Shown here: positions 3,057 through 46,573 of the stretch, piece after piece | Layout: each line of letters starts with the position of its first letter | Numbering within the stretch: position 1 is the first letter of the stretch | Source: Candidatus Poseidoniaceae archaeon | GTDB lineage: Archaea; Thermoplasmatota; Poseidoniia; Poseidoniales; Poseidoniaceae | Direction: 5' to 3' | Length of the DNA stretch: 64,000 nt | NCBI GenBank assembly: GCA_965662895.1 | Contig: CBFIJH010000002.1 | Span: forward strand, 148,125 to 212,124 | Notes under the pieces: generated by a model | Told to the model about the DNA's origin: nothing | Seen by the model: only the letters and a program-made list of their open reading frames with translations | Databases searched by the model: none | Made by a program: the position numbers and the translations under genes

Positions 3057-4400
3057 TCAACGTCGACGACCCTTTCTCGTCTTTTTTGAGCGCCCTTGTC
3101 GCTCATACGCACGGCTCTGATATGCACGACGGTCTTGATCATCTGTCCAGATTGAATGTTCTGAAACATCATCGGAATCGGGCAAATTGTCGAGCGATTC
3201 TATCGTTAGACGCAATCCTCCTAACTGGTCTTGGAGGGCTCGAACATTGTCGCCACCCCTACCAACCAATGTTGAGATCATATTGCTTGGAGCATAAACC
3301 GTTGCTGAAGCATCACTCGTAAATTGAACACGAACATGCACACCAGCCCATTGCCGTATGGTATGGATGAGTTGTTTTTGAGCGAGTTGTTGAATGGGCT
3401 TTTTTTGCCCCGTCTCTGTAACGGGAACGACAGCAAGTTCTGAGCCAAAAGCGAACATTTCGTGTGTGACATTACCGGATGGGAATTCAACAACTTCGAT
3501 GACGGGTCGTGCCAGTTCTTCTTGCATCCCCGATGGTGGTTTGACAGTCATTCTTAGTTCAAGCACTTGTTGTATCTTTCCGGCTTCAACGTGCAAAACA
3601 GTGTCAAGCACTTGAGAAACCAATCCGAGCTCGACTTTCCCAATCAGCCGCTGAATCGCTTCAAGCGCTGAGTTGGCATGCGTAACACCGAGTAGACCGA
3701 CACCAGCAAGTCGTACATCAGCAAAGATCTCGAAATCCCTTGCTCGGCGTACTTCATCAAAAATAACGAAGTCTGGGCGTACAAGGAAAATGATTTCTGC
3801 GGTCTTCTCTAAATCGCCTTCCAGTGGAGCATACTGTGTAATTCGGTCAGCGAGTTGCAAATCTCTTGGTGCTTCCATGGTTTTGACCATGGCTCCGATA
3901 TCGTCATCGAGATACTCAGCAATGGCTTGCGCCAACGTCGTCTTTCCAGAACCAGGACGACCACAAATGAAGACTCCTCGATGATGATTGGACAATCGTT
4001 CAATGATTTTGGAATCGAGGTTGTAATCACTGAGCGATAGTTTTGCTACAGGTCGAACCACTGTGATTTCTCGAGCATCTGAGAAAGGGGGGCTTGCACA
4101 TGTTATTCTTAGGTCACCAAGTTGCAAGACTTGGCAACCCTTACGATCGATTTCAAGAAAACAATCACTTCGGTGTTGGTTTGCTTCAACGATTGTTTGC
4201 AAAGATTCCTGGAGCGATTCCAACCGTAGGTTATCCCACTCTTCTCCTTCCAATTCGAGCTCAACCAATTCGAGGTTTCCAATCGTTCCTCGCTTGACTC
4301 GAGGAGGACAATCGGCTTTCAGAAAAATTGTGTGGACTTCTGCTTCGAGAAGATCTTCCATTTCAGAGGGGAGGCTTGGGTGTTCACCGTGCTTTGCCAT
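3057..4400 (-). CDS. PINA-like (PilT/VirB11-type) ATPase with C-terminal KH domain, apparently lacking the PIN domain
   Basis: PPFSDAREITVVRPV, Walker A GRPGSGKTT, KTMEAPRDL, RPDFVIFDEVR, GVTHA, KH loop LVGRGGDNV. Start placed at MAKHG (4400), which avoids overlap with the upstream gene. Confidence 0.85.
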   Translation of the reverse strand: MAKHGEHPSLPSEMEDLLEAEVHTIFLKADCPPRVKRGTIGNLELVELELEGEEWDNLRLESLQESLQTIVEANQHRSDCFLEIDRKGCQVLQLGDLRITCASPPFSDAREITVVRPVAKLSLSDYNLDSKIIERLSNHHRGVFICGRPGSGKTTLAQAIAEYLDDDIGAMVKTMEAPRDLQLADRITQYAPLEGDLEKTAEIIFLVRPDFVIFDEVRRARDFEIFADVRLAGVGLLGVTHANSALEAIQRLIGKVELGLVSQVLDTVLHVEAGKIQQVLELRMTVKPPSGMQEELARPVIEVVEFPSGNVTHEMFAFGSELAVVPVTETGQKKPIQQLAQKQLIHTIRQWAGVHVRVQFTSDASATVYAPSNMISTLVGRGGDNVRALQDQLGGLRLTIESLDNLPDSDDVSEHSIWTDDQDRRAYQSRAYERQGRSKKTRKGRRR

Positions 4401-4441
4401 CGAGACGATGTCTGGTAGGAAGCCTTTGACACTTCGCACAG

Positions 4442-4819
4442 TTATGCAGATGGTGTCCCCGGTTCGAGCATGCCGAAGGTCCACCAGATGTAGGCATTGG
4501 TTCCAATGCTGCCGATGATTGATCCAACCAATGGGAATTCATAGAAGTAGATGCACCAGTATGTAAGACCAGCAGTGACGACAACAAATGCGAGAATGTT
4601 GAGTATACCTCCATTTTTCATTCCGCTCAACTGGACGGTCTTTTCATAGTGGTTTGCCCCCCAGATGATGGCGATAAGGCAAGAAAGGATAGAAAACGTC
4701 ACGACTGCATCGAAGACAGAATCCTGCACAAACCAAGTCGCCAAAGAGGCAATTGTGGTGCCGGCGAGTAACCAGAGCATGACACGTTCGGGGGTCATGT
4801 TCCTCCCAGTGGACATCAT
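4442..4819 (-). CDS. Small 4-TM membrane protein, unknown function
   Basis: 125 aa with four hydrophobic segments; 4-nt overlap with the upstream oxidoreductase stop. Confidence 0.7.
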   Translation of the reverse strand: MMSTGRNMTPERVMLWLLAGTTIASLATWFVQDSVFDAVVTFSILSCLIAIIWGANHYEKTVQLSGMKNGGILNILAFVVVTAGLTYWCIYFYEFPLVGSIIGSIGTNAYIWWTFGMLEPGTPSA

Positions 4820-5757
4820 CTCTTCAATTCTCGTGTGTTCAGACTTCCTGAGCCAGCCAATTGTTGCCGAGCGATGTCGATGCAGTTGATGGTGCGTAAG
4901 ATTGACCCAGTTGAAGCTGCAGAAGAAAGAGATTCATTATGAAGAAAATCGCGAAGAACTCCTTCCAACGGTGTTTGGAAGGAATCAACGACAATGGATT
5001 GCTTTTGTTCACGGAGAACAACGAATTTTTGATGATTATCCAAAGTAACCAAAATGCTACCATCCGTGCCAACAATGCTGACCTTTCCGATATCGGTGTC
5101 GGAATTCCAACCTACATCGATGCGGACCTCGACCTGATTTGGATATTCGAGTGTCAAATTTGTGGAAATCCGAGAACCGTTGATTTCAGAGATGCGCGTC
5201 GGCCCTTGACCATCGAGCAAAAATTCTGCCAAATCAACCCCGTGTATAGCCAATGAATCAAGAGCGTGGGAGACCCCATCCCCTGCACGTATGGTTTTTT
5301 TCAGATACTCCATCGACTGAATAGCTCCAATCTCTCCTTTTCGAATACGCTCTCGGACATTGACAAGACAGGGGTGGAATCGTAAGAGGAAACCAGTCTT
5401 CAAGGTCTTTCCTTCTTGGATTGCAGTAGCAACGAGTGAAGACGCGTGTTCGAAGGTTTCAGCAATTGGCTTCTCTAAGAACACATCAACTCCCTGCTGA
5501 AGAAATTGTTTTCCTAAGTGATAATGTGAACCGTTCGGAGTAGCAATGACGACCGCGTCAAGTTGGAACAGTTTGACGAGTGTTTCTGGATCATCGTGAA
5601 CTTGAAATCCCATTGAACGGGCCTTCTGCAGTGCAACTGTGTCCACATCACAAGCAACAATCGCTTCAATTGATTCTTTTTGAGCAATCTGACGTAATGC
5701 CTGAAGATGCTTTGAGCCCCATCTGCCACAACCAACTACACCTATTCGTCGCGGCAT
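4816..5757 (-). CDS. Gfo/Idh/MocA family NAD(P)-dependent oxidoreductase
   Basis: RIGVVGCGRWG Rossmann motif, DAVVIATPNGSH, VFLEKPIA, GFLLRFHP. Confidence 0.9.
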   Translation of the reverse strand: MPRRIGVVGCGRWGSKHLQALRQIAQKESIEAIVACDVDTVALQKARSMGFQVHDDPETLVKLFQLDAVVIATPNGSHYHLGKQFLQQGVDVFLEKPIAETFEHASSLVATAIQEGKTLKTGFLLRFHPCLVNVRERIRKGEIGAIQSMEYLKKTIRAGDGVSHALDSLAIHGVDLAEFLLDGQGPTRISEINGSRISTNLTLEYPNQVEVRIDVGWNSDTDIGKVSIVGTDGSILVTLDNHQKFVVLREQKQSIVVDSFQTPLEGVLRDFLHNESLSSAASTGSILRTINCIDIARQQLAGSGSLNTRELKR

Positions 5758-5805
5758 GGTTTCAGGGCGGCTTTGGAGCAATTGAGGTTTGGCTTCTCAC
5801 CGTAC

Positions 5806-8043
5806 CTAGTACGCGTCGTAATAGGCATAATCCGGGTATTCAATGTCAAAGGTTACAACATCGGTCAATTCCATACTTGTTAGGTTGTGAACGGTGACGC
5901 CTGCTCCAGAGAAAGCATAGATGAAGTCACCCATGAAGATGGTCCGTCGAATGTTTTCGTTCCCGCCCCACCAATGGTTGACATCTTCATGATTGAGGAG
6001 AGAAGAATGATTCACTTCACCATGAACGGACATGCTTCCAGTTGCTTCATCGACATTGACAATGATAGCCTTTGAAACGTATTCATAGTTCCACAGATAA
6101 CCCCAATCTTCGTTGTAGGTCTCAACATATCGATAGGTTGAGAGTGGAACAGCGAGCATTTCCTTTGGCCCCCAATACTGGAACGCCTTGTGCTCGTACA
6201 TTGCCTCTGAATAGGACCATGTCCACTGACCATTATCCGGATCGTTCACAGGCGAGAGCATCAGTGTATCAGCCACAGCTGGTTGTGTTAAATCGCTAAT
6301 ATTGAACGTTGAAAGCCGCGTACTCGACCAATCCAAACCCAATCCATCTTCTCCAGCAGGCCCCATACCAATGGTGAGGAGCATATCATCGTGAAGTGGA
6401 TGAATGTAGGTTGAAACGCCTGGGACTTCCAATTCACCAAGGATTGTCGGTGTTGCTGGATCCGATAAATCGATGGTCCAAAGTGGGTCAATTTGCTCGA
6501 ATGTAACAAGGTAAGCCCGATCTTCGACAAATCGTGCTGACCAGATACGTTCACCTTCTGCAATACCATCAATACGACCGTATTCAAGCAGAATTTGTTG
6601 ATCGGTTTGTGGATCGACACCGCGGACGAGTGTAATGATTGAAGATGACATCGGTTCTGGATTTTCCATCCACCACCGATTCCATTGACCAACGGTCGTC
6701 GCAACACGAAGAACTCCTTCGTATTCTGAAATACTGAATTGATTCAAAATCTGACCATCAATCCGTCCCGATCCCGTATACATCGTAACCCCAGGTACGG
6801 AGATGTCGAAGGTGTGAATGTTGGTCATCTCGTCAACATCATCTTGACCCCAGAACCACCACCAATCCCATGCGTTTTCAGCGAGAACCAGTACATCCGT
6901 TGAAGCGTAAACAAGTGGATGGTTGCTGAGGAGGTGGTCGGACTCGTAATCGAAGTCAGAAGAAAACAAATCGAGGGAGAGAATGTTGGTAAATCCACGA
7001 CTAAAGCCATCCATAGGTTTTGCAAAGTTCTCACATTCCTCAGAACGCATATCGTGCTCAATGATTTGACCATCAATCCGTTGGTAGATTTTTGGCACAA
7101 GCTCCTCTAAGGTTATGGCTTCAAGAACTTCATCGTTTGCTTGAATTGTCTCGTAGGCAATCATTTCACGGTAGGTCCGCCGTTGGGGATCGTCCCACTT
7201 CAGATCATAGTAGGGGCTCGGCATGTTGAGCCAACTCACCAAGCCTGGAATGTTCAACCATGAGTGGGTGACGGCCCGAATGGAACCATCAATCTCTCTT
7301 GCATCCACGTTGTACCCTTCCAGGTAGAGTTCTTGGACAACCTCTGGATTTGATCTGTCTGATATGTTGTATGTGGTGTATTTGGTCAATGAATTAACGC
7401 GCCACTCGCTGTAATCTCCTCCCCAACGCAGATATTCGTAAAGAGCATCATCAGCGTCGATGCTCCATGGGTTATAACTTGAGAGAACAATCAATCGATC
7501 TCCTCGCAACATCATGGAAATTGGCGAACCTTCAATGGAAGAGTTGCTAGCGAATTCAATTTCACCGTATTCTGGAACGCCCATAATCGAGAGTGATGAC
7601 CCCTGCAAGGCGTAAATAAAGTACCCATCCGTCTTGATGAAATCCGCTTCATCAACACCTTGCTCTTGGTTGTTGGTACCACTGAAATCTTCGCCTTGAG
7701 TTCGCGTTTGCGGTTGAGTGGAACTTGTTGCAGCATCACCATCCATTGCAGCTTCTGCAACCATCCCATCATCGAACATTATCCCTCCGTAGTAGTACTG
7801 TTCTTCGACAGCCTGCAACAACTCCGTTCGATACTCTTCGGCAATACTTGCCTTGAGATCGTATTCCATGTCCAAACACGAATCGAACTGAACCAGGTGT
7901 GGTTGTGAAATGGTCCGACTTGTTTCGGTTCTCCAATCATCCGGCAATTCGGTGGTGATAATTTCATCACGTACACTACCAATACAACCAGCTGTGAGCA
8001 TCAAAAGTACAAGCCCGATGGAAGTAACCATCCTTTTGTTCAT
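5806..8043 (-). CDS. Secreted beta-propeller domain lipoprotein (Beta_propel family)
   Basis: Lipobox LTAGC; FSGTNNQEQGVDEADFIKTDG, GQILNQFSISEYEGVLRVATT, RAYLVTFEQIDPL, GELEVPGVSTYIHP. Confidence 0.85.
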   Translation of the reverse strand: MNKRMVTSIGLVLLMLTAGCIGSVRDEIITTELPDDWRTETSRTISQPHLVQFDSCLDMEYDLKASIAEEYRTELLQAVEEQYYYGGIMFDDGMVAEAAMDGDAATSSTQPQTRTQGEDFSGTNNQEQGVDEADFIKTDGYFIYALQGSSLSIMGVPEYGEIEFASNSSIEGSPISMMLRGDRLIVLSSYNPWSIDADDALYEYLRWGGDYSEWRVNSLTKYTTYNISDRSNPEVVQELYLEGYNVDAREIDGSIRAVTHSWLNIPGLVSWLNMPSPYYDLKWDDPQRRTYREMIAYETIQANDEVLEAITLEELVPKIYQRIDGQIIEHDMRSEECENFAKPMDGFSRGFTNILSLDLFSSDFDYESDHLLSNHPLVYASTDVLVLAENAWDWWWFWGQDDVDEMTNIHTFDISVPGVTMYTGSGRIDGQILNQFSISEYEGVLRVATTVGQWNRWWMENPEPMSSSIITLVRGVDPQTDQQILLEYGRIDGIAEGERIWSARFVEDRAYLVTFEQIDPLWTIDLSDPATPTILGELEVPGVSTYIHPLHDDMLLTIGMGPAGEDGLGLDWSSTRLSTFNISDLTQPAVADTLMLSPVNDPDNGQWTWSYSEAMYEHKAFQYWGPKEMLAVPLSTYRYVETYNEDWGYLWNYEYVSKAIIVNVDEATGSMSVHGEVNHSSLLNHEDVNHWWGGNENIRRTIFMGDFIYAFSGAGVTVHNLTSMELTDVVTFDIEYPDYAYYDAY

Positions 8044-13165: not shown

Positions 13166-14509
13166 TTACAGCAGAATATTGACCATTGCTCCTAGATAGT
13201 AGGCAAAACAGAAGATTGTAAAATAAGAAACAACCAGTATTGTTGAATCGTTGCATTTTTGCGGTGCAGAGAAATCGTTGTCTTTGTTCTTGAGAAGTAT
13301 GACAGCCCAATAAATCCAGAACGCCCACATCACAGAAGCAAACGTCAATTGGATTGCACCTATTGTATTGAACACTGAATTTTTCCTCCACATTCTGTGA
13401 ATGAGAATAAGGAAGAAACTGAGGCCACTTAAGCCAATGAGTCGTTTTGGATAAGGCAACGCCCAGGGAATGAGCAGTGAGAAAATCATGAGATGGTATC
13501 CATAGTGAATCTTTGAGTAAAAGATGAAGATCCATAATATGCAGAGCGTAAATGCAGGAAGAATTTCAATTTTCTTCATCAATGCAGCACCCCATGTCAG
13601 CACAATCATTGAGACAAAAAGAATGTGAAGATATGTGCTTGGAATGTAAACCACGTACTCGCCCAAAAATCGCCAAAACGACATACCTCGTTGATCAATG
13701 TCCGACACAGTTTCAGACAACTGAGCTCCGGATGCAGGTTGTTGACCGGTCAAGTAAAAATTGAGGAATTGGAGGAATTCTTCGGTAGCATACATCAAAA
13801 ACGGTAAGGTAACAACGATGCCGATTCCTAATCCCATGGTTGTGGCAAGAAATCGCTTTTTCCAAGTTTTTGGGCCTATAGCTGCAAGCGGAGCACAGAG
13901 AGCTGGAAACAATTTTGTCATTGCACCAAATCCGAACACAGCAGATGCTTTGTACCAACTTTTTCGAATCATGAAGAGAAATGCAAGGAGAAGAAAGTTG
14001 ACAATAATTGCATCATCTTGCATCATCATGATGGATGTATAATGAGAAAATGGTGAAGCGATGTAAAAAATCGATCCTGCTAAAGCATATTGTTTCTCGA
14101 AAAAGGAATTTAGAATATGGTACAAAATCACTGAAGACGAGAAAATAAACACGGCAAACCACATTGTCCAGATAAGCGCGGTATTCCCAAGTAAAACTGC
14201 AGGCACGAACAAATAATTGATCAATGGAGGCGACAGAGTGACGTGTTCCGTATCACTGTAGAGCATTTCTCCGTCAAGAATCGTTTCTGCACGATCTCTG
14301 AAAATGTCCAAATCTTTGTGTTCAAATCGGCCATCATCATCATTAATTTCGTATCCAATAAGCATTGGAGCAGCCATGACGAACGTCAAGAAAAACAACA
14401 ACACGTAGATTCTTTTCGTCGAAAAGGTTTCCATCTTTTTGAACAATAAAATGAATTTATTGTTAAGCGAGTGGACCGAATCACGAACCTTTCCGGATGA
14501 ATTTGACAT
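13166..14509 (-). CDS. Polytopic GT-C glycosyltransferase (GT87-like)
   Basis: About 11 TM helices; first-loop DLDIF..LYSD..SPPL; QDDAI; GAMTKLFP motif typical of GT87/PigM-like enzymes. Confidence 0.65.
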   Translation of the reverse strand: MSNSSGKVRDSVHSLNNKFILLFKKMETFSTKRIYVLLFFLTFVMAAPMLIGYEINDDDGRFEHKDLDIFRDRAETILDGEMLYSDTEHVTLSPPLINYLFVPAVLLGNTALIWTMWFAVFIFSSSVILYHILNSFFEKQYALAGSIFYIASPFSHYTSIMMMQDDAIIVNFLLLAFLFMIRKSWYKASAVFGFGAMTKLFPALCAPLAAIGPKTWKKRFLATTMGLGIGIVVTLPFLMYATEEFLQFLNFYLTGQQPASGAQLSETVSDIDQRGMSFWRFLGEYVVYIPSTYLHILFVSMIVLTWGAALMKKIEILPAFTLCILWIFIFYSKIHYGYHLMIFSLLIPWALPYPKRLIGLSGLSFFLILIHRMWRKNSVFNTIGAIQLTFASVMWAFWIYWAVILLKNKDNDFSAPQKCNDSTILVVSYFTIFCFAYYLGAMVNILL

Positions 14510-14597
14510 GCTGCTTACTCAAATTGCGTCGTTGAAATGCGACATATATATGTTCGGGAATGAATATCTATTTTACCACCACCACGCAGGGTTGCAC

Positions 14598-15533
14598 ATG
14601 AGTACCGAGGCGTTGGAACTCTCAATCATCGTTCCAGTTCTTGATGAGGAGGAGAATTTGATTCCACTCGTTGAAGAAATTAAATCAACATTGGAAAACA
14701 CTGCCTATGAGATCATATTCATCGACGACGGTTCGTCTGACAATTCGCTTGAGGTCATGATGGGCTTGAAGGAATCAGAGGGAAATGTCCGGGTCATCAA
14801 ACACCGTCGAAATTTCGGTAAAGCGGTCGCCTTGAAAACTGGGTTTGCAGCAGCGAGCGGAAAGATTTCCATTACAATGGACGGAGATTTGCAAGACAAT
14901 CCAGCGGAAATTCCTCGGTTCATCGAGGAAATTGAGAACGGCAATGACATCGTTTGTGGTTGGAGGGCGAAACGGCGTGATAATATCCTCAAACGTTGGC
15001 CATCAAAACTCTACAATCGTCTTGTACGTATGATGTGCGGAATCAAGATTCATGATATGAATTGCGGATTCAAGGCTTACGACACCGACTTGGCAAAATC
15101 ACTCAATTTGTATGGTGATATGCATCGCTATACCCCTGTTCTTGGGAAAATGAACGGTGCAACGATTACTGAAATTGCCATCAACCACCGACCTCGCTTA
15201 CATGGAAAATCAAAATATGGAACAAAGCGACTTGCTCGTGGCTTCTTTGATTTGATTACAATATCGTTCCTCATGGCGTTTCTTGAGCGACCGATGCACT
15301 TGTTTGGGAAGGTAGGAGGATTTCTATCAACAGTGGGACTTGCAGTCTGCAGTTACCTTGTTGTCATCAAGTATGCCTACGATGAGGGGATTGGCGATCG
15401 ACCATTGCTCTCGCTCGGGGTTTTACTAATTATCATCGGCGTCCAATTTTTCCTTCTCGGTTTGTTGGGTGAGACAATCACCTATCGGGCGAGTGAGAAC
15501 AACACAAACACATCATCGAGCAAGGAGCTTTAA
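14598..15533 (+). CDS. GT2 polyprenol-phosphate glycosyltransferase (ArnC/GtrB/DPM1-like)
   Basis: LSIIVPVLDEEEN, IDDGSSD, RNFGKAVA, MDGDLQD, DMNCGFKAY, HRPRLHGKSKY, two C-terminal TMs. Confidence 0.92.
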   Translation: MSTEALELSIIVPVLDEEENLIPLVEEIKSTLENTAYEIIFIDDGSSDNSLEVMMGLKESEGNVRVIKHRRNFGKAVALKTGFAAASGKISITMDGDLQDNPAEIPRFIEEIENGNDIVCGWRAKRRDNILKRWPSKLYNRLVRMMCGIKIHDMNCGFKAYDTDLAKSLNLYGDMHRYTPVLGKMNGATITEIAINHRPRLHGKSKYGTKRLARGFFDLITISFLMAFLERPMHLFGKVGGFLSTVGLAVCSYLVVIKYAYDEGIGDRPLLSLGVLLIIIGVQFFLLGLLGETITYRASENNTNTSSSKEL

Positions 15534-16466
15534 TCACTCTTCTTCCAGTTCTTCTGGCGACATCATTGTCAAGCCAAGAACAAAGACAATGATTTCGACA
15601 AGGACGTTTAACGTTCTTGAAAGGACCGCAACAATACCTGCAATCCCTCCGCTCAAAAACAGTGACAAGTTGAACGTGAAAACGCCTTCTCGAGCCCCGA
15701 GACCTGCAGGTAAGAAGAACGCAAAAAAACCAACCAACCAAGCGATCGAGAAAGATCCAATGAGTAACGTAAGAGAAGCATCCACACCAAGCCCCAAGAG
15801 AATGAATTGATGTGCAAGTCCCCACAGAACCCAAGAAACGATCATGAGGAAAAGGGCGATACTGTAGTACTTTCTTGTCATCGACGTATCATGATTCCAT
15901 TCGCCTCTTCCCAGAATAGAAAACGGTTTCCGGACGATTGCCTGCGTAAACTTTGGACTCATTATTGGTAAGAGACTTGCAAGGCCAACGCAGACCAGAA
16001 TCCACTTTGTTGATGTTGGAATTCCTTCCAAATGGAGCAAGAAAAGTCCTGCAATCACTGCGGATGATACACTGATAATCAATTCCCAAACGAAGGATTC
16101 GAGTACGACTTTGCTTCCATATCTTCGAGCAACGTAGGCTCTCCCTGCAATGAGACTTATTTTTCCAGGAACATATTTTGCAACGTTTGTTGTCCACCAA
16201 ATACCAAAACAGAGTCGGTATGGGACGTCTGCTCCACTTCCCAACATCAAAAATTTCCAAACAATTGGGCTCAGAATCAATACGCCAAAAATGCAAACAA
16301 TCGACATAAAGATGATCGGTTTTGCATCAAAGAGCGTGTCAAGTATGTTGATGTTGCTCGATTCAATCTGTTGATGAATGAACCAAAATGAAAGTATGAC
16401 AATCAAAACAGTTAGTATTCTCCCAAGCAATTGGGCGGAAGAAGTTGATGCAGTGTCACTTTTCAT
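15534..16466 (-). CDS. Flippase-like membrane protein (UPF0104 / LPG synthase TM domain)
   Basis: About 8 TM helices; KYVPGK and PAGLGAREG signatures. Confidence 0.8.
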   Translation of the reverse strand: MKSDTASTSSAQLLGRILTVLIVILSFWFIHQQIESSNINILDTLFDAKPIIFMSIVCIFGVLILSPIVWKFLMLGSGADVPYRLCFGIWWTTNVAKYVPGKISLIAGRAYVARRYGSKVVLESFVWELIISVSSAVIAGLFLLHLEGIPTSTKWILVCVGLASLLPIMSPKFTQAIVRKPFSILGRGEWNHDTSMTRKYYSIALFLMIVSWVLWGLAHQFILLGLGVDASLTLLIGSFSIAWLVGFFAFFLPAGLGAREGVFTFNLSLFLSGGIAGIVAVLSRTLNVLVEIIVFVLGLTMMSPEELEEE

Positions 16467-17680
16467 TCAACCACACCATACCATTGCTTCATCGTATTCG
16501 ACAACGATTCATCGGTGTATTTCTGATCGATTTCTGTACGAGCATTATGCACCAATTCGTCGCGATATTCAGAATTCTCAAGAATCCTGACCATTGCATT
16601 TTGCAAAGCATTGACGTCGTTTTCAGGAACGATGAGTCCGGTCTTCTCATGAATGATCGTCTCCGCAATTCCTCCACAATCCGTTCCAATAACAGGGATG
16701 CCTGCAATCATTGCCTCGAGAACAACAAGTCCGAGCCCTTCTTTCTCACCAAGTGCAGTCGTCTTTGAAGGCAATACGAACAATTCAGCCTGATTGTAAA
16801 ACTCTTTGAGTTCGCCTCGAGGCTTCGAGCCGTGAAATTCGATACGATGATCAATTCCATTTTTCTGCGACAAGGCTGTCAATCGTTGACGTTCAGGACC
16901 GTCGCCAACAATGTCGAGTTTCCATTCTTTGAATTCATCATGTTGCAACAATTTGCTAAAGGCATTGATGAGGACATCGACCCCCTTGACCTCCATTAAT
17001 CGGCCAACAAAGAGGATGCGCTTTGTTTCTTTAGGCGTCGTGAGAGGTTCTTGGCGAAAATCCTCAAGCCCGAAGACCATAGGCAATACGAGCCCTTTTC
17101 CACGAGATTGTCCATAGTGATTGGTGACGATTTCCTGCAGTGCTTCGGAGACAAAGTGAAGTTTTTTGGCAGAATGAATCGATTTCTGAGCGAGCCGTTT
17201 TGCAATTTTCATTTTATTGATAAGAAAAACATCTGTTCCATGCATTGATATCCATAGATTCGATTGATTCACCATTGCCTTCTTTGTGATGTAAGCGCCA
17301 GGAATCAACCAGTGTGCATGAACAATGGTTGGTTTCAGTTCTTTGATGAGTTTCCTCGTCGCCTTTCTCCACTTTCGAAGAAAGGAATAAAACAAGAACG
17401 CCTTGAATATTGAACGCTTCACCTGTTTATGCATATCGCCCTGGTAGGCGAGCGTTTGTTTGTGTTCTCGTGCATATCGGAACCGCCGAATTTCGATGCC
17501 ATCGATCGTTTCAGTTAACGGTAGGCCGGGGGCGTGTGGGCAATGGACGACAACACGTGCAAAGCCGGAACAAACCTTCGCCAATTCATGCATAAATGGC
17601 GCAACATGGTCGTCTTTGTATCGTGGATAAACGTGGGTGTTGAAGAGGATGATTGGCTCTGACTCCATCGTATCATCCAT
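16463..17680 (-). CDS. GT4 (GT-B) glycosyltransferase
   Basis: HAHWLIPG, ILFVGRLMEVKG, EGLGLVVLEAMIAGIPVI (Ex7E). Confidence 0.92.
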   Translation of the reverse strand: MDDTMESEPIILFNTHVYPRYKDDHVAPFMHELAKVCSGFARVVVHCPHAPGLPLTETIDGIEIRRFRYAREHKQTLAYQGDMHKQVKRSIFKAFLFYSFLRKWRKATRKLIKELKPTIVHAHWLIPGAYITKKAMVNQSNLWISMHGTDVFLINKMKIAKRLAQKSIHSAKKLHFVSEALQEIVTNHYGQSRGKGLVLPMVFGLEDFRQEPLTTPKETKRILFVGRLMEVKGVDVLINAFSKLLQHDEFKEWKLDIVGDGPERQRLTALSQKNGIDHRIEFHGSKPRGELKEFYNQAELFVLPSKTTALGEKEGLGLVVLEAMIAGIPVIGTDCGGIAETIIHEKTGLIVPENDVNALQNAMVRILENSEYRDELVHNARTEIDQKYTDESLSNTMKQWYGVVE

Positions 17681-19270: not shown

Positions 19271-19357
19271 TGGTGCAGAGGGCAGGATTCGAACCTGCGA
19301 ACCGTTACGGACTGGGACCTCATCCCAGCGCCTTTGACCAAGCTGGGCGACCCCTGC
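19271..19357 (-). tRNA. tRNA-Leu(GAG), CCA encoded
   Basis: Reverse complement GCAGGGG...CTGGG-AT-GAG-GT-CCCAG, long variable arm, GGTTCGAATCC, CTCTGC-A-CCA. Confidence 0.95.
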
Positions 19358-19440
19358 AGCAATCACAACTGCCACACTCGCGTATATCAAAACCACGACG
19401 CGTTCAAATGACGAGAATTGCGATGTCGGTAATCAATAGG

Positions 19441-19450
19441 TCTCAATAGA
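19441..19450 (+). promoter_or_regulatory. Candidate operator TCTCAATAGA upstream of the metallophosphoesterase-GT operon
   Basis: An identical 10-mer lies upstream of the convergent kinase pair (23037-23046, minus strand); a partial repeat TCAATAG is at 19433. Confidence 0.35.
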
Positions 19451-19516
19451 ACATAGGACTTTCCGAAGTATCTGGCTATGTATCTTGAATGTCTGAGACA
19501 GCACGAGAGGCTATTT

Positions 19517-20365
19517 ATGGAAGCAAACGAGCATTACCGTACAATGTTCCTCTCCGATTGGCATCTTGGCATGAAGGGCATCAAGTCGGCTGAACTTCTT
19601 GCATTCTTAGAAACTCATGACGCTGAGACGATTTATCTGATTGGGGATATCGTCGATCAATGGGTTCTCGGCAGAAAGTGGTCATGGAATTCGGACTGCG
19701 ACAATATCCTGCGCAACCTCTTGGAGAAAGCAGAGCGTGGAACAAAAATCATCTACATACCCGGGAACCACGATGATGGGTTTAGGGCTTGGGCGAATAC
19801 CTCCGTCAATGGAATAAGAATCCAAAAAGACGCAGTTCATACAACAGCGGATGGCCGCAAGCTCTGGATTCTGCATGGTGATGAATTCGATTTGTTCATG
19901 AGACATAGTAGATTTTTGGCAAATCTTGGCCATTCCATTGTTCAGTTGCTCATGAAACTGAACCGTCCCGTGACTTGGTTCCGAAAGAGAGTAGGGCTGA
20001 AACCTTGGTCACTTGCAACAATGGCAAGACGGGCTTTTCAAGGAAGCAGTAAGACCTACCGTAGATTCTCAACAGCGGTTACAGAAGAAGCGATGAAACT
20101 CGGTTACGATGGTGTTGTTTGTGGTCACATCCACAAGGCAGAATTCAAATTGATCAATGGAATTGAGTACTGGAACGATGGTGATTGGGTCGATTCATGT
20201 ACAGCAACCGTTGAGGCAATGGATGGAACGATGCAAATTGTCCATTATCAGCCGGCATCTGAGACCATCAAGGCATTGTGTGAGCGTGCTTCAATCCGAG
20301 ACTCAGAGATAACAAACAAACCCATTCTCCATCTTCCTGAGATTCTGGAACAGGTGGCTTCATGA
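19517..20365 (+). CDS. PlcP-like metallophosphoesterase (family usually annotated UDP-2,3-diacylglucosamine diphosphatase)
   Basis: YRTMFLSDWHLG, IYLIGDIVD, IYIPGNHDD, HTTADGRKLWILHGDEFD, GVVCGHIH, YWNDGDWVDSCTA. Confidence 0.82.
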   Translation: MEANEHYRTMFLSDWHLGMKGIKSAELLAFLETHDAETIYLIGDIVDQWVLGRKWSWNSDCDNILRNLLEKAERGTKIIYIPGNHDDGFRAWANTSVNGIRIQKDAVHTTADGRKLWILHGDEFDLFMRHSRFLANLGHSIVQLLMKLNRPVTWFRKRVGLKPWSLATMARRAFQGSSKTYRRFSTAVTEEAMKLGYDGVVCGHIHKAEFKLINGIEYWNDGDWVDSCTATVEAMDGTMQIVHYQPASETIKALCERASIRDSEITNKPILHLPEILEQVAS

Positions 20366-21501
20366 AAATCGCCTATGCACTTGCTGGAGAGGGACGAGGT
20401 CACGCAGTCAGAGCCATATCGCTTGCAAAAGGTCTCATAGAGCGCGGCCATGAAATTGATTTCTTTACCTGTGGTGATGCCCTCGAATTACTTCGGGAAA
20501 CGTTTGGTGCCAACGCGGTTCATGATCTCGAAACACCGAGATTTGTTATCGTTAGAAATCGAGTATCAATCTTGCGGACAGGAATTGCCTCAATTCGTTT
20601 CTTTGGCAAACAAGGTCGCAGAAAAAGAAAGTTTTCAAAGACATTACGCTCGATGAACATCGAAGCAGTTATTTCCGATTTTGAGCCAACGTTTCCAAGG
20701 GTCGCTCGTCGACTCAAACTTCCTTTGATTTCATTTAACTCTCAACGATTTGCCTTGGATGCAAAATTGGATGAAGTGCTGACATTTCGGCAACGGATGA
20801 AACTCTTTCCGATCAAAACCTTATGCTGGTTTTTTGCCCCAAAGCCACAACTTAGTTTGGTTTCAAAAGGGTTTAACCTGAAACCGAACAAGCCAACTGC
20901 ACATATACTCGGTCCAATGTTGCGGCCAGAATTTTTCCCAGGGGCATGGAGGCCAACAGGCACACATGCGATTGCCTATCTTCGAACAAGTGTGCTCCAA
21001 CACCTCCCAGCTATTGCTGCGCATGCTCAATCGCATGGCCTGTCTCTCAAATTGTACGGACATTACCCTGAAAATGTTCCTGACAACGTCGAGATCCGAC
21101 CTATATCGAACGACGGGTTCATTGAGGATCTTCTGACTGCAGACTGGATGATTCAAACCGCGGGTACACAACTCCTTGGAGAGGCCGGAACAATCTCTAT
21201 CCCATCGATCTGTATCCCCGAACCGGGACAAGTTGAGCAGGAAATCAATGGGATTCTCGCAGAAAAAACGTTGCCTAATGTGAAGGTTCTGCGTCCAAAG
21301 TCAACATCGATTCAGGAGATTGATGCAATGCTTGAGACATGCCGCAAAGCATCGACGACTTCAAACATCGAAAACGGAAAAAAACAGGCCGTTGCAATTG
21401 TTGATGAATTTTTAAACGGTTTAGAACGAGAGACAACCTTGTCTGAACCAAAGCAAGACCTTGATCTCCAGTTAACAAATGAACAACCTTCCTCAAATTG
21501 A
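20362..21501 (+). CDS. Glycosyltransferase, MJ1255/VC2487-like GT-B family
   Basis: MKIAYALAGEGRGHAVR, VISDFEP, TAGTQLLGEA, PEPGQVEQEIN; ATGA overlap with the upstream gene. Confidence 0.82.
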   Translation: MKIAYALAGEGRGHAVRAISLAKGLIERGHEIDFFTCGDALELLRETFGANAVHDLETPRFVIVRNRVSILRTGIASIRFFGKQGRRKRKFSKTLRSMNIEAVISDFEPTFPRVARRLKLPLISFNSQRFALDAKLDEVLTFRQRMKLFPIKTLCWFFAPKPQLSLVSKGFNLKPNKPTAHILGPMLRPEFFPGAWRPTGTHAIAYLRTSVLQHLPAIAAHAQSHGLSLKLYGHYPENVPDNVEIRPISNDGFIEDLLTADWMIQTAGTQLLGEAGTISIPSICIPEPGQVEQEINGILAEKTLPNVKVLRPKSTSIQEIDAMLETCRKASTTSNIENGKKQAVAIVDEFLNGLERETTLSEPKQDLDLQLTNEQPSSN

Positions 21502-21563
21502 TGAGGTTTAATCATTCAACGAGATTCTGTCAATTGTTTGCCTATTGGTTCCAGGCGTCGAAA

Positions 21564-22235
21564 TTAATCGCGAATGGTTTGGAGCATATCCGAAACGTAT
21601 GGTTTGACACTGGCCCATACCTCGCTGTGGACCTCGCCGACCGAACCTCGAGTGTGAACTACGGGGTACCCCTCAAGTTCTGCTCTTTTCTCGAAGGCCT
21701 TTCTGAGGAGCTTCTGATACGCCAAAAATGAGTGAGTGATGGAGGGAGACAATCCCATGTCAGCCCCAGCTTCGTAATGGTTGAGTTTTGTCAGCGATTC
21801 GTTGTACATCATACGGTTGAGCAGGCGGCGTCCGCCCGCAAGAAGTGTCACGGTCACATCCGCCTCTGGCATGTCTCGGTACAATCCCTGAATCCATTCC
21901 GCATCGCCGCCTCGGACGGTCTCCCGAATCAACGGCGTTGTGGTGTAACGATCGGCGATGACAACAAAACCGGCCTCCATGAGCGGCTGGACCTCGTGAA
22001 TGTACTGGTCGTGCAAATCGGTCGCATAGAGAAGGGCACGAGTTCGCCAGTTCAATTGATGAAGATCTGAATGTGAACGCTTGATGAGGTCTCCGAGAAG
22101 TTCCGAACGGGCAAGCCCAACAACCACCACGGCGACGCCGTGGGCTTGTAGCCGTTCACTCAGTAACCGCACGTGCATTGAACGGCCAACATTATCCGGC
22201 CCTTCGATGACAATGAGTTTCCCTCCTGTCGTCAT
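21564..22235 (-). CDS. Thymidylate-kinase-like protein with degenerate P-loop (putative second PPK3-like subunit)
   Basis: LIVIEGPDNVGRSM (Lys to Arg), LLYATD, VIADRY, YEAGADM; 4-nt overlap with the upstream paralog. Confidence 0.75.
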   Translation of the reverse strand: MTTGGKLIVIEGPDNVGRSMHVRLLSERLQAHGVAVVVVGLARSELLGDLIKRSHSDLHQLNWRTRALLYATDLHDQYIHEVQPLMEAGFVVIADRYTTTPLIRETVRGGDAEWIQGLYRDMPEADVTVTLLAGGRRLLNRMMYNESLTKLNHYEAGADMGLSPSITHSFLAYQKLLRKAFEKRAELEGYPVVHTRGSVGEVHSEVWASVKPYVSDMLQTIRD

Positions 22236-22987
22236 GCGTCATCCTCCAGAGCACTCCAGTCAAACGATGATGTGCGAATCATCTCGGCTACCCGGTCGTT
22301 TTCGTCAATGGGTTGAATGTTGTCGAGATCCACGTGCTCTGAAATCATTGCACGCACGCGAGATTGGACCTCTGCAACGGTCCCCAAGGCGTCTACTCGG
22401 ACAATACGACCATCTCGAACCAGAGCGTCGTAGATTTCCTTGATTTTACCCTGAAGTATCTTGTAGGATTCAAACGGGTCGAATGTCCATCCCATGTCCA
22501 GGCCAGCTTCGTAATACTTCAGTGTCGGCCGGCCTTTGATAATCCGGTCGTATCCAATTTCAGGAGGGATATCAAAGTACAGGGTTATGTCTGGTTCTCT
22601 AGCAAACGAATAGTTCGATTCGATGGTATCTCGTTTGACACCTCGGGCACCATCTCTCGCCATTGCCGTGAATTTGTATCGGTCGCAGATTACGATGCCA
22701 CCAACCTCCAGCATCGGCTCAATTTGCTTGCTCCAGCGGTCTGCAAAGTCTGCAGCATGGATGAGGTGGAAGGTTTGTGGCTTGAGTCGTTTTGTGTTCT
22801 TGCCGGCCTTCGTGGCTTCTGCAACAACCGGACTTGAGTTCCATTCAGTGTGGTGTACCGGCAGTCCCAGTGCACGAATCCAGTTGAACAAAAGCATAGC
22901 CTGAGTTGATTTACCGCTTCCATCCATGCCTTCGACAGCAATCAATAGACCCCGTTCAAGTGGTAATTTTTCACGTACTTCGGACAA
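22232..22987 (-). CDS. Thymidylate-kinase-like protein with canonical P-loop (putative PPK3-like subunit)
   Basis: LIAVEGMDGSGKSTQ, TEWNSS, LIHAADFADR, CDRY, YYEAGLD. In-frame TTG start at 22987 follows SD-like GGGTGTGAT; the ORF track start is 23059. Confidence 0.8.
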   Translation of the reverse strand: MSEVREKLPLERGLLIAVEGMDGSGKSTQAMLLFNWIRALGLPVHHTEWNSSPVVAEATKAGKNTKRLKPQTFHLIHAADFADRWSKQIEPMLEVGGIVICDRYKFTAMARDGARGVKRDTIESNYSFAREPDITLYFDIPPEIGYDRIIKGRPTLKYYEAGLDMGWTFDPFESYKILQGKIKEIYDALVRDGRIVRVDALGTVAEVQSRVRAMISEHVDLDNIQPIDENDRVAEMIRTSSFDWSALEDDA

Positions 22988-23036
22988 TGCATCACACCCG
23001 TTCGATTGTTTGTAGAACCTTCCGAATTTATTACCA

Positions 23037-23046
23037 TCTATTGAGA
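23037..23046 (-). promoter_or_regulatory. Candidate operator TCTCAATAGA upstream of the kinase pair
   Basis: Plus strand TCTATTGAGA is the reverse complement of the 19441 motif and lies just downstream of a TTATAATA TATA-like box. Confidence 0.35.
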
Positions 23047-23089
23047 TATTATAATCCAAGTTTTTTTGTAATCTCAGTGTATGAATTCT

Positions 23090-36394: not shown

Positions 36395-39300
36395 ATGCTA
36401 GAAAATCGAAACAAAATCACTCGACGACCAAATGCCTTCAAATCACTTCTGCTTGTATTTCTCATGGTGATGAGTACAACGCTAGCGATGATGATTCCTT
36501 CAGAGTGGGAACAAGAAGAAACGGTAATTGATGTCGAATACCGATCGATGCAGAGCACTCCAGCACTCCAATCCATGGACCAAGCAGGTCAGGGTGAATA
36601 CGAAGGTGCAACAGAGTTCCACTCAGAAGACATCCACCCTGCATTGCGCGACATCATGTGGGCTGACCCTGGCGTTTCATCGGGAATTATCACCGATTTA
36701 GCGGCTGTTGAAGCAATTATGTCTTCAAACAACTTCCTTGTCGAAGAGTCCAACCGGAACGACCACGATAACGACGGAATCAGTGATTTGTACGACCTTG
36801 ATGATGACAATGATGGAATTTACGACCTCATTGAGCGATTTGACGGATGTTATGGAACAGATCCTTTCGACCACGATAACGATGGGATTCTTGATATCGA
36901 CGATTATGATGATGACAACGATGGGATTCTCGAAGGGCCAATCGACTATGCAGCCCTTGAAGCGCAAGGATATGACCCACTGAACGTCTCTACCGACCGT
37001 TTCGTTGTTTCAACAACCGTCCATCCATGGGCGAATGTACAAGTCGGCGACTTCTATCTTGCTGACCAGAACCCCTTCGACCACGACAATGACGGTGTAA
37101 CCGACGAAGACAGCGATGGCTCGGGCGCAGGCCGCTTCGATGAAGATGACGATAACGATGGCCGTATCGATCAATTTACTTGGCCGTGTGATTTTGACTC
37201 CGATGGTCTCATGGATTATTTCGATCCGGATGACGATAACGATAACGTAGCTGATGTTGACGATTCCCACCCATACGACGCCAGCATTACGACAAGCAAT
37301 GCCGCAGCTGGAAACCTCTTCAATGCACCAGTTCCGTGGGATTTTGTCAACTATCGTGACTACTCCGGAGGCGTCAATTACGTGACATGGGAAGCTGCAC
37401 GTGTCAATGCTGATGGCCAAGGAGCAGGTTCTGAGGGCGCACAGGGCACTCCTGCGTTTACCAACATCGTTGATGGTGACTTGGATGGAGATGGTATTCC
37501 AAACTTCCTTGACCCGGATAACGACGATGATGGGACTCCTGACTCTGCAGATACCGATGATGATGACGATGGAATCCTCGATATGTTTGATCCAGATGAC
37601 GATAATGACGGAATACCGGATACGTGCGTCAATGTTGACAACAATGGTGATGGGCTCGGGGATTATACTCGTGAAGACGATTCACCGTATCAAACTCCAG
37701 GAGGCGACACCGATAGCAAATCTGGTCTTGATTGCGAAATTGACTATGACCAAGACCTCGATGATGACCGACTCCGGCCATTCGACCAAAACTACAACGG
37801 AGTCTATGACTGGCTCGACCCAGAACTCGGAGGAACGACAAGCCCAGATAATCTAGGCAATGTTTTGGTGAGTGGCGATGCAACAAATTTCGAGTACGAC
37901 CTTGATGACGATAACATCGACAACGAAAACGACAGCTTCCCCCTTGACAAGGCTTCGGATGTGATTGCATGGAATTGCCCTACTTCTTCGAACCCTAATC
38001 CACTCAACCCCGACCCAAGATGTCAAACCCGCCGTGCTTCGCACGCACAGTTCAATGACTGGGACGGAGACGGTGTCCTAAATTGGGAAGATATCGATGA
38101 TGACAATGACGGAATCATTGACATTCTTGACATTGACTGGGATTGTGACCTTGACAATGATGGCGACCTCCATTCCCTCAACGGTGCGCTGTATCGCGAC
38201 GATGGTCCGAATGCAGTTGACTCCGACATCGATGGCGACGGTCTCGAAAACGACATCGACTGGGATGATGACAACGATGGTCTCTCTGACCTTTTCGATC
38301 CTGATGATGGAAACTGTGGGCTGGTCGACCCCGATCTCAATGATGCCTTCCAAACACCTTTCTATCCTGTCGGCGACCTCGGCTCGCTCGACGGAAGCGC
38401 TGACAATCAAGATTACACCACAAACATTGATTCGTACTGGGCAATGGTATTCTGGCACAATCCGTTTTCAGACATGATGATTGATTACAATGGATACGAC
38501 AGTACAACCAACCCACCAACGCCTGGAAACGTTCCAGAATTCTACTGGTTCCTATTCGCTCGCTGGTCCTCATACAATGGAGGAAACGAATGGGATATCG
38601 ACAGTGATGGAGACTCTCTCATCAACGGTCTTGACATCGATCAGGATGCCGACGGTCTTCCAGATTGGTGGGACCAAGATGAAGGAAACGATGGAATTAT
38701 GGATGTCAATGACGTTAAGCTAGGTGGAACCTTCAATATGAGTATCTGCGGACATACCGTTGGTAATCTCGGCCAAGGATTCGTCTGCGGTTACTCCTAT
38801 GCTATTGCTTATCAAATGCCTCTCAACGGTGTGACGGCTCAATTCGGCCTACCCTATTCGACACGCCCAGATGCTGCTGTTGATCAAGGCGCCACAGCTG
38901 GCGGGGTATCAGGCAACTGGTCGTGTACTCCTGGAGCACAGGGTGGCTGCTGGCACTACGACTTCGGAGGCGACGGCGTAATTGATTCAGCGATTTCCTT
39001 TACACAGATGCAAAACAACCGAGATGCGTTCGTAACGTGGATTGGGTTAACGACTGGCATTTGGCAGTGGAACTCAGACAACGGTCCCGATGCTGACTTC
39101 CCAGACGAATTGGGTGCTGATTTGGACAAGAACGATGCCGACGGCGACGTCGATGGGGATTTCTTCAACAACACAATCGACCTCGACGACGATTACGATT
39201 CCATCTTTGATTGGTTTGATGTCGATGACGATAACGATGGTCTATGGGATTATTTCGAAATCGATTCCAACGATGATCTTGATGATGATACAGGTCAGAA

Positions 39301-46500: not shown

Positions 46501-46573
46501 CTCCTCGCAAGTTTCTTGTTTTCTTGAGACCGATATGCCTTGCATTGATATGGCTTGAATGCTAGCATATTGC

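Follow-up and report, generated by a model that had tools for sequence, protein, structure and literature searches.

What is a phosphoesterase gene of bacterial kinship doing in a planktonic archaeon, and why does it overlap a glycosyltransferase gene? The two genes lie in a 64,000-nucleotide stretch of DNA (hereafter the window) from a Candidatus Poseidoniaceae archaeon, at positions 148125-212124 of the second contig (CBFIJH010000002.1) of an assembly that is 92% complete, with 0.04% contamination, and comprises 1.86 Mb in 26 contigs. We propose, with a probability of roughly 65%, that the pair is a two-gene, phosphate-sparing module that remodels phospholipids into glycolipids in this member of Marine Group II (MGII, Poseidoniales). 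In a first step, suggested by the family of the esterase, a cytoplasmic metal-dependent phosphodiesterase of the PlcP type would cut the glycerol-phosphate bond of the cell's own glycerophospholipids, freeing the phospho-head group for phosphorus recycling and leaving diradylglycerol in the membrane. In a second step, to which gene coupling and the company of its family point, the glycosyltransferase (GT) would use a nucleotide sugar to glycosylate the glycerol hydroxyl thus exposed; the product would be a glycolipid free of phosphorus and probably beta-linked.

Two open reading frames (ORFs) share the + strand: one of 295 aa at 19478..20365, which contains a further ATG at 19517, and one of 379 aa at 20362..21501. 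The ATG at 19517 is the likelier start of the esterase, because the protein is 282 aa long in four close relatives and a Shine-Dalgarno-like GAGAGG stands 6 nt before this codon. The elements of the pair are as follows:

19517..20365, + strand: plcP-type (LpxH2-family) metallophosphoesterase of 282 aa, identified by family profiles, motifs, BLASTP and tree
20362..21501, + strand: GT-B glycosyltransferase of family PF13528 (Glyco_trans_1_3; MJ1255/VC2487-like), 379 aa, identified by Pfam and a structural model
20362..20365, + strand: ATGA overlap of the plcP stop and GT start, with GGTGG 4 nt before the GT ATG

The overlap at 20362-20365 couples the two genes translationally, as had been claimed in an earlier note made from the sequence of this DNA.

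The esterase is a calcineurin-like metallophosphoesterase (Pfam Metallophos, 44.5 bits, cut-off 21.5) in which all five blocks of the superfamily are present: D14/H16, G43-D44, G83-N-H-D86, H120 and G203-H-I-H206. Its motifs are SDWH (residues 13-16), GDIVD (43-47), GNHD (83-86), HTTADG (108-113), HGDEFD (120-125), GHIH (203-206) and NDGDWV (220-225), among them the GNHD, HTTADG..HGDEFD and NDGDWV that the earlier note had singled out. The published signature of metallophosphoesterases is D..GD..GNH(D/E)..H..GHXH, with an arginine in block 3 (GNR) in LpxH only (PMC3087551); the window protein carries histidine rather than arginine at this point, as expected of PlcP/LpxH2 and not of LpxH. In the same paper the name 'LpxH2' denotes the 270-aa (Pseudomonas aeruginosa) and 281-aa (Sinorhizobium meliloti) proteins, and for this reason we treat 'PlcP' and 'LpxH2' as one family; the earlier note had kept LpxH2 as a third clade, a distinction that falls away.

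BLASTP comparisons agree. The esterase aligns with the 281-aa PlcP orthologue of S. meliloti at 45% identity over 235 aa without gaps (E 4e-74) and with the 270-aa orthologue of P. aeruginosa at 43% over 242 aa (E 3e-71); with Escherichia coli LpxH, identity is 27% over 123 aa (E 2e-7). The S. meliloti reference gene adjoins genes for an acyl-homoserine lactone synthase and a LuxR regulator, and from this position and its length we take it to be the orthologue of the founding PlcP, presumably locus SMc00171 beside sinI/sinR. The P. aeruginosa reference gene overlaps a GT4 gene, beyond which comes one for an adenylate cyclase; this is the plcP-agt1 arrangement described in that species for PA3219-PA3218 (PMC8528852). 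The esterase passes, against both of the references compared, the threshold of E 1e-40 to a PlcP used in a published search for PlcP homologues (PMC6030836). Two NCBIfam LpxH equivalogs score well below their cut-offs (43.4 against 134 bits; 35.8 against 190.35 bits). In a PDB sequence search, LpxH structures were the sole relatives, at E 6e-4 or worse, with no PlcP structure among the matches. Neither the esterase nor the GT has a predicted transmembrane segment or obvious signal peptide (maximum 19-residue Kyte-Doolittle mean below 1.0).

Thousands of bacterial proteins match the esterase at about E 1e-72 with 43-49% identity, and an exhaustive scan yielded 631 clusters (50% identity level) at E <= 1e-30. 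We built a quick maximum-likelihood tree of 87 rows, with SH-aLRT (approximate likelihood ratio test) values as its only support and no bootstrap. The rows comprise three LpxH (E. coli, Solimonas, Nevskia), two PlcP references, nine named bacterial matches, 46 unnamed matches, 11 Planctomycete or Acidobacteria proteins, four others (Parabacteroides, two Solimonas and one Nevskia LpxH2-type) and 12 MGII-type loci including the window. The unnamed matches are 42 of the 46 top cluster representatives (P0216-P0261), four having been dropped by a length filter of 230-360 aa, plus four other search matches; P0014 and P0016 also fall in the MGII clade, and P0216 is identical to the protein of locus L009. 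The three LpxH split from the 84 PlcP-type rows on a long branch (SH-aLRT 100), and all 14 MGII-type rows form one clade (SH-aLRT 97) nested among bacterial PlcP, both reference orthologues included. On these sequence comparisons, the esterase belongs to the PlcP/LpxH2 phospholipase C family; the earlier reading of it as PlcP-type rather than LpxH is upheld by the GNHD motif, by the low equivalog scores and by its place in the phylogeny. Many of the bacterial matches (Erythrobacter, Sphingomonadaceae, Acetobacteraceae, Burkholderiales) are labelled 'LpxH' at source. As block 3, identity, equivalog scores and the long branch all set the esterase apart from LpxH, we consider this label on its relatives a misnomer. 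Separately, the genome of Solimonas terrae carries two tandem PlcP/LpxH2-type genes (L111; 41% and 36% identity to the window esterase) besides a bona fide LpxH (L109).

The GT scores 141.1 bits on PF13528 (cut-off 25) and 73.2 bits on the narrower TIGR00661 (MJ1255/VC2487; cut-off 195.9), which places it in the Pfam family and outside the NCBIfam subfamily; it is the only PF13528 gene found in the window genome. Its motifs are GEGRGH (residues 9-14), DFEP (106-109), TAGTQLLGE (266-274) and PEPGQVEQEIN (286-296). Invariant in the family are the N-terminal G-x-G-x-G-H loop, D106-x-E108-P109, G268/Q270/G273-E274 and P286-E287...E292-Q293..N296. The C-terminal ...GE...PxxxEQxxN is, we assume, akin to a nucleotide-sugar signature of the GT1/GT28 kind. 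An AlphaFold model from a 20-sequence alignment (mean pLDDT 91.1, the predicted local distance difference test) has the two-Rossmann-domain GT-B fold, and together with PF13528 it bears out the earlier description of the coupled enzyme as a GT-B glycosyltransferase. Foldseek and VIA-align both rank inverting GT-B enzymes first, with structural Z scores of 27.3 for Bacillus subtilis YojK, 25.1 for GtfD, 24.8 for the sterol 3-beta-glucosyltransferase Ugt51 and 24.2-24.3 for MurG; YojK, Ugt51 and MurG are inverting GT-B enzymes with lipophilic acceptors. Judged by these closest folds, the GT is presumably of the inverting GT1/GT28 (MurG-like) GT-B kind. A PDB search by sequence gave no match for the GT. 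Homologues are few (95 matches in a word-indexed search), the closest non-archaeal ones being 30-34% identical and from Sumerlaeia and Planctomycetota, and the ESM Atlas returned PF13528 clusters only, under automatic names (MurG, teichoic acid) that give no functional lead.

PlcP usually pairs with Agt, a GT4 enzyme of the retaining kind whose motifs are GRVAxEKN and FPSxTDTFG (PMC8231724). We reject an Agt-type GT4 identity for the window GT: it has no significant similarity to the Agt1-type GT4 of P. aeruginosa (BLASTP E 0.54), a motif search found neither GR[VIL]AxEKN nor FPSxTDTFG, and the enzyme reaches only 22.7 bits on Glyco_transf_4 (cut-off 28.5), with no match to Glycos_transf_1. 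The analogy drawn earlier to the known type of neighbouring enzyme therefore fails at this point. The rest of the earlier remodelling logic stands (a PlcP, a coupled GT-B enzyme, an archaeal host and phosphate sparing as the best reading), with a GT of a different, uncharacterised family.

The association of the two genes is strict. In the window's order, 16 of 201 species genomes have the esterase, which corresponds to 9 of the 61 genomes of high quality and to 6 of 24 genera, and a PF13528 match occurs in 24 of the 201; the coordinates of esterase and GT adjoin in all 16 esterase-holding genomes. A 401-genome sample of the phylum gave 10 matches, all in two families of this order, and none in the roughly 300 searched genomes of other families. 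In all 24 of the 24 archaeal-type loci both genes share a strand, esterase first, with 0-99 nt between them; these loci include duplicates, L006/L013, L007/L012 and L008/L023 being apparently the same genomes. The zero-gap overlap recurs in L002-L004 and L010, the gaps in other relatives being 3-99 nt. Divergence has kept pace in the two proteins: in the most distant genera each retains about 41% identity. Downstream, two tandem overlapping genes of the thymidylate kinase family (Tmk; 223 and 275 aa, window 21564-23059, - strand) converge on the GT. This convergent pair is kept in nearly all related loci, in both of the upstream arrangements described below. The sequence downstream of the GT stop codon has no clear T-run.

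A link to phosphate is found in other genera of the order. Upstream sequence of 2 kb or more is available for 14 loci; in nine of them (L011, L014-L018 and L020-L022), pstA and pstB lie directly upstream on the same strand, with pstB ending about 55-90 nt ahead of the esterase gene. On TIGR00974 pstA reaches 205-208 bits (cut-off 193), and on TIGR00972 pstB reaches 388-390 bits (cut-off 343). L022 and L024 also have a PstS-family gene, the former 1.7 kb downstream and the latter upstream in divergent orientation, with scores of 133-143 bits on TIGR02136, below its cut-off of 206. The upstream pstA-pstB genes supply independent support for the phosphate link. PlcP, BtaA and PstSABC have been described as phosphate-stress proteins in Phaeobacter (PMC10132767).

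The second upstream arrangement is that of the window's own genus, in which the pair faces a tRNA gene:

19358..19516, strand not assigned: intergenic region between the divergent tRNA-Leu(GAG) and plcP, delimited by alignment of six loci
19271..19357, - strand: tRNA-Leu(GAG), the kept upstream neighbour in the genus, given as context with no part in the function claimed

The divergent tRNA-Leu(GAG) occupies this place in the window, L002, L004-L007, L012 and L013. Across the six aligned loci, the intergenic region has a mean column identity of 78%. A 40-nt block at about 19373-19412, containing GCGTATATC (TATA), is near-invariant and lies about 25-30 nt from the tRNA-Leu 5' end; it is probably the tRNA-Leu promoter. 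A repeated CAATAG/CTATAG element at about 19434-19453, some 65-85 nt ahead of the plcP start, is a candidate plcP promoter. A similar sequence, CTCAATAAAC, precedes plcP in the pst-linked locus L017. As for expression, parts of the stretch occurred in only one marine metatranscriptome run (share 0.08): apart from tRNA pieces, this run gave one contig of 212 nt, which is identical to 19945-20153 inside plcP. At best, the contig inside plcP is a weak hint of transcription. No RNA contig of this run bridges the plcP-GT junction, and the parts without RNA cover carry no weight.

Bacteria, too, have PF13528 genes near PlcP. Of 65 bacterial PF13528 loci, 11 carry a same-strand PlcP-like gene within the flank, and these 11 are spread over at least five separate positions in the GT tree. 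In four loci from Pirellulales and other Planctomycetota (L032, L040, L047 and L070, the last from Botrimarina hoheduenensis), genes for a PlcP-like protein, a DUF3419 (BtaA) protein and a PF13528 GT share one strand. The gene of about 2.3-2.8 kb between the outer two is DUF3419/BtaA in all four loci tested (379-407 bits), and an S-adenosylmethionine (SAM) methyltransferase gene (BtaB-like) follows it in both loci tested (L032 and L070); these identifications do not extend to the intervening genes of the high-GC Planctomycete loci L025, L028, L029 and L046. The BtaA of Rhodobacter sphaeroides has been reported to match DUF3419 with P = 2e-106 (PMC6642084), and both plcP-btaAB ('type 1') and plcP-GT arrangements are described as lipid-remodelling contexts (PMC4796936). 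A GT embedded in a PlcP-BtaA-BtaB cluster most plausibly consumes PlcP-released diacylglycerol (DAG) as well, and the four loci look like combined betaine-lipid and glycolipid remodelling clusters. We also observed a radical-SAM/SPASM gene between, or just after, the PF13528 GT and PlcP-like genes in one Acidobacteriota and two Planctomycetota loci (L037:7080-8165, L055:6649-7986 and L071:7157-8398).

Several observations weigh against phosphate-driven remodelling as the function of the window pair. In the window's genus the pair is not beside pst but beside the tRNA-Leu gene, and the pstB of this genome lies 118 kb away on the same contig. The evidence for expression is one contig from an RNA library, possibly carried-over DNA. 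Most bacterial PF13528 loci (54 of 65) have no PlcP in their flank, and PF13528 paralogues unlinked to PlcP exist in MGII itself, so that the family as a whole is not tied to PlcP. The upstream neighbours in the window (ArnC-like GT2, GT4 and PMT_2-like genes) suggest surface glycosylation. In Parabacteroides, an LpxH-like gene overlaps a very divergent PF13528 gene; this pair is ambiguous and may hold a true lipid A enzyme, and we did not count it as support because Bacteroidota may use the esterase for lipid A. Finally, a literature search for the function of PF13528, TIGR00661 or MJ1255 found no characterised member. For this reason the lipid acceptor of the GT is argued from neighbourhood and fold only.

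The alternative that best survives keeps the chemistry and changes the occasion: the pair could serve constitutive glycolipid synthesis, or a response to some other stress (membrane charge, surface protection), rather than phosphate starvation. It would agree with the pair's own intergenic region beside a tRNA gene, with the lack of a pst neighbour in the window's genus, and with a published observation that the PlcP-Agt glycolipids of P. aeruginosa also alter polymyxin resistance (PMC8528852). One genome of the order, G138, moreover keeps a GT of the same clade at the same Tmk-adjacent site without PlcP (locus L114). The nine pst-linked loci out of 14 speak against this view, as do the characterised PlcP systems of the cited papers, all of them induced by phosphate stress (PMC8528852, PMC4796936, PMC10132767). 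A gene held by 16 of 201 genomes is accessory and fits niche adaptation better than a core pathway. We consider a constitutive or other-stress role unlikely, while giving it some weight.

We hold it for distinctly improbable that the pair works in envelope glycan assembly, with the esterase cleaving a pyrophosphate- or phosphate-linked polyprenyl or nucleotide-sugar lipid intermediate in the manner of LpxH and the GT acting, MurG-like, on a polyprenyl-phosphate-linked acceptor. MurG is indeed among the best structural matches (Z 24.2-24.3), and the ESM Atlas automatically names a neighbouring cluster MurG. Genes for an ArnC-like GT2, an LPG_synthase_TM protein, a GT4 and a PMT_2-like protein lie 2-6 kb upstream in the window, and L114 has a PMT_2-like gene and a polysaccharide flippase gene beside the GT. 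However, such glycosylation neighbours are not kept with the pair, pst genes or a tRNA standing there in other loci; the esterase groups with the characterised phospholipases of the PlcP clade and is remote from LpxH; and the Pirellulales clusters join the same two families to the DAG-consuming BtaA.

Several observations support an archaeal host. The window encodes a group II chaperonin (thermosome), a PAC2 proteasome-assembly protein, HerA and an HVO_0163-type regulator, and the gene for geranylgeranylglyceryl phosphate synthase (GGGPS) is on the same contig. Both proteins have relatives in Candidatus Poseidoniales, Poseidoniaceae, Poseidonia sp. and Thermoplasmatota archaeon, and contigs from DNA runs of three studies span 19332-21800 unbroken, with 1-10 differences. 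These archaeal markers, the taxonomy of the relatives and the bridging contigs establish that the host is an MGII archaeon, as claimed before, and that the genes are no binning artefact. In GC and GC3 both genes are similar to the housekeeping genes around them. A genome search for small-subunit ribosomal RNA gave no match in the assembly. Misbinned or misassembled bacterial DNA, in which case there would be no archaeal PlcP, could be argued from the proteobacterial identity of the esterase's closest non-archaeal relatives and from one related locus (L024) labelled Flavobacteriales, but is close to refuted and we reject it, given the archaeal markers of window and contig, the 0.04% contamination, the agreement in GC and GC3, the three-study contigs, the recurrence of the pair in 16 Poseidoniales species genomes with kept Tmk synteny, and the Tmk, PstS and PstB synteny of archaeal loci in L024 itself.

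Locus L024 merits a remark of its own. Assigned to 'Flavobacteriales bacterium isolate NAT179', it has in common with the Poseidoniales loci the plcP-GT pair, two downstream Tmk genes (74% identical to those of the window), a gene of the PstS family and pstB, and in the esterase tree as well as the GT tree it groups within the archaeal clade. The probable explanation is that an archaeal contig was binned into a bacterial metagenome-assembled genome.

How did the archaeon come by this operon? In the GT tree, 16 Poseidoniales GTs form one clade (SH-aLRT 99) apart from 56 bacterial GTs (98), and the archaeal clade includes paralogues unlinked to PlcP (L113, L116 and L114). The root of this tree is an arbitrary midpoint, and the direction of events is inferred. 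Because the PlcP clade is nested in bacteria and the GT clade is archaeal with unlinked paralogues, the operon would have been assembled in the archaeon: it appears to be a chimera, in which a bacterial plcP was captured once within Poseidoniales and placed before a GT lineage already resident in the order. A later loss of plcP in L114 may be an alternative to this simple order of capture. In L114 (positions 3401-5936), a GT of the PlcP-linked clade (44% identity) lies beside the same Tmk pair without a plcP gene, with a PMT_2-like gene and a polysaccharide flippase gene on its other side; this locus represents either the ancestral state or plcP loss. Two other MGII genomes of the same family (G065 and G078; L113:5002-7232 and L116:5029-7279) hold a PF13528 paralogue of 30-33% identity without PlcP. 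It is followed by a FabH/KAS III-like gene and two unannotated genes, with an NAD-dependent epimerase gene in L113, and may belong to another lipid- or polyketide-linked glycosylation cluster.

Which lipid would such an operon act on? Our search of the 92%-complete window genome found no match to Fe-ADH_2, the family of glycerol 1-phosphate (G1P) dehydrogenase, which was matched in all four archaeal control genomes. The genome does hold GGGPS (138 bits), a CDP-archaeol synthase (CarS, 95 bits) and a GpsA-type domain, as well as three PlsC-type acyltransferase matches, of which the four archaeal controls have none; a family search for PlsY gave no match. This is the mixed archaeal and bacterial gene set described for MGII. 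According to PMC6962369, MGII are among the most abundant archaea of the surface ocean and their membrane lipids are unidentified; waters dominated by them lack polar lipids based on archaeol or glycerol dialkyl glycerol tetraethers. The same source, citing Villanueva et al., gives G1P dehydrogenase as absent from MGII and PlsC homologues as present, and relates the proposal that MGII lipids are bacterial-like or chimeric and based on glycerol 3-phosphate (G3P). Archaeol ether lipids, the substrate envisaged in the earlier note, are therefore doubtful as the target of the esterase, there being no G1P-dehydrogenase-type match, PlsC-type acyltransferases being present and MGII waters being without archaeol polar lipids. 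A PlcP 55% diverged from proteobacterial enzymes would fit a substrate that resembles bacterial glycerophospholipids around the phosphodiester. We may tentatively go further, to a scenario whose odds we put somewhat below even: MGII may build near-bacterial glycerophospholipids (G3P-based, diacyl or mixed ether/ester) that a bacterial PlcP acquired by horizontal transfer can use, and some phosphate-stressed lineages may convert them to beta-glycosyl diradylglycerols through PF13528, which would then be a hitherto unrecognised family of glycoglycerolipid synthases, widespread and with one and the same role in archaea, in Acidobacteriota and, next to BtaA/BtaB, in Planctomycetota. BtaA (PF11899) had no match in the window genome, a result that is uninformative as 14 control genomes had none either.

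Other features of the window are mentioned for completeness. The surface-glycosylation-like cluster at 13166-17680 consists of genes for a PMT_2-like GT-C (25 bits, just under the cut-off), the ArnC-like GT2, the LPG_synthase_TM-domain protein and the GT4; it is not kept beside the plcP-GT pair in other genomes. At 52269-54389 (+), an NAD-dependent DNA ligase of bacterial type, with BRCT and HhH domains, is encoded in this archaeal genome. Two giant ORFs, 36395-44332 (2645 aa) and 46559-51226 (1555 aa), both on the + strand, have weak Big_1/CarboxypepD_reg and beta-helix matches only and presumably encode surface proteins.

The replacement of phospholipids by phosphorus-free lipids is a major phosphorus saving for ocean plankton, documented for phytoplankton and bacteria only in the literature that we found. 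The earlier note knew of no such remodelling in planktonic archaea, and a full-text literature search, outside which most subscription journals lie, likewise found no report of PlcP in archaea, MGII or Poseidoniales; the word 'Archaea' is absent from the main text of PMC4796936 and PMC6030836. PF13528 members might already be among the 'type 3/5' plcP-adjacent glycosyltransferases of PMC4796936. That several MGII genera have a PlcP of bacterial descent, in every case joined to a GT and often linked to pst, suggests lipid remodelling under phosphate stress in some MGII populations, and the pair would predict a class of glycolipids in phosphate-poor waters. It is also a first functional lead for the uncharacterised PF13528 family. 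Both enzymes are small and soluble, and their measurable substrate preference (diacyl, diether or mixed; G1P or G3P) would bear directly on the make-up of MGII membranes. If the bolder scenario were true, the operon would be a direct handle on the 'missing lipid' problem of MGII and the first lipid-remodelling system described in Archaea.

Comparison with known systems places the pair as follows. With LpxH, the UDP-2,3-diacylglucosamine diphosphatase of lipid A synthesis, the esterase shares the metallophosphoesterase superfamily; it differs in having GNHD where LpxH has GNR in block 3, in its low identity (27% over 123 aa only) and in the long branch between the two groups. With GT1/GT28 enzymes (B. 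subtilis YojK/YjiC, yeast Ugt51 and MurG), the GT shares its fold over about 300-330 residues (Z 24-27, root-mean-square deviation 2.8-3.8 Å) and the N-terminal glycine loop, although identity is only 12-17%. The esterase resembles the S. meliloti PlcP ('LpxH2' in PMC3087551) in identity (45% over 235 aa), in GNHD in block 3, in length (282 against 281 aa) and in falling on the same side of the LpxH/PlcP split. Unlike the window gene, the S. meliloti plcP has no adjacent lipid gene. Its products reportedly feed the formation of diacylglyceryltrimethylhomoserine (DGTS), a betaine lipid. As in the plcP-btaA-btaB ('type 1') and Pirellulales clusters, whose other members make a phosphorus-free betaine lipid from DAG, a PlcP-like and a PF13528 gene share one strand, whereas the archaeal GT belongs to a clade of its own, apart from the bacterial GTs. 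The PlcP-Agt operon of Phaeobacter MED193, SAR11 HTCC7211 and P. aeruginosa (PA3219-PA3218) differs in its bacterial host, where a Pho box/PhoB system can be invoked as it cannot in the archaeon, and in its retaining GT4, against a GT1/MurG-like, presumably inverting PF13528 enzyme here. In this operon too, a PlcP-family esterase is followed by a glycosyltransferase gene on the same strand; in P. aeruginosa the genes likewise overlap by 4 nt and the esterase is 43% identical. Its published function is the conversion, under phosphate stress, of phospholipid to DAG and of DAG to glycosyl-DAG (PMC8231724, PMC8528852, PMC4796936).

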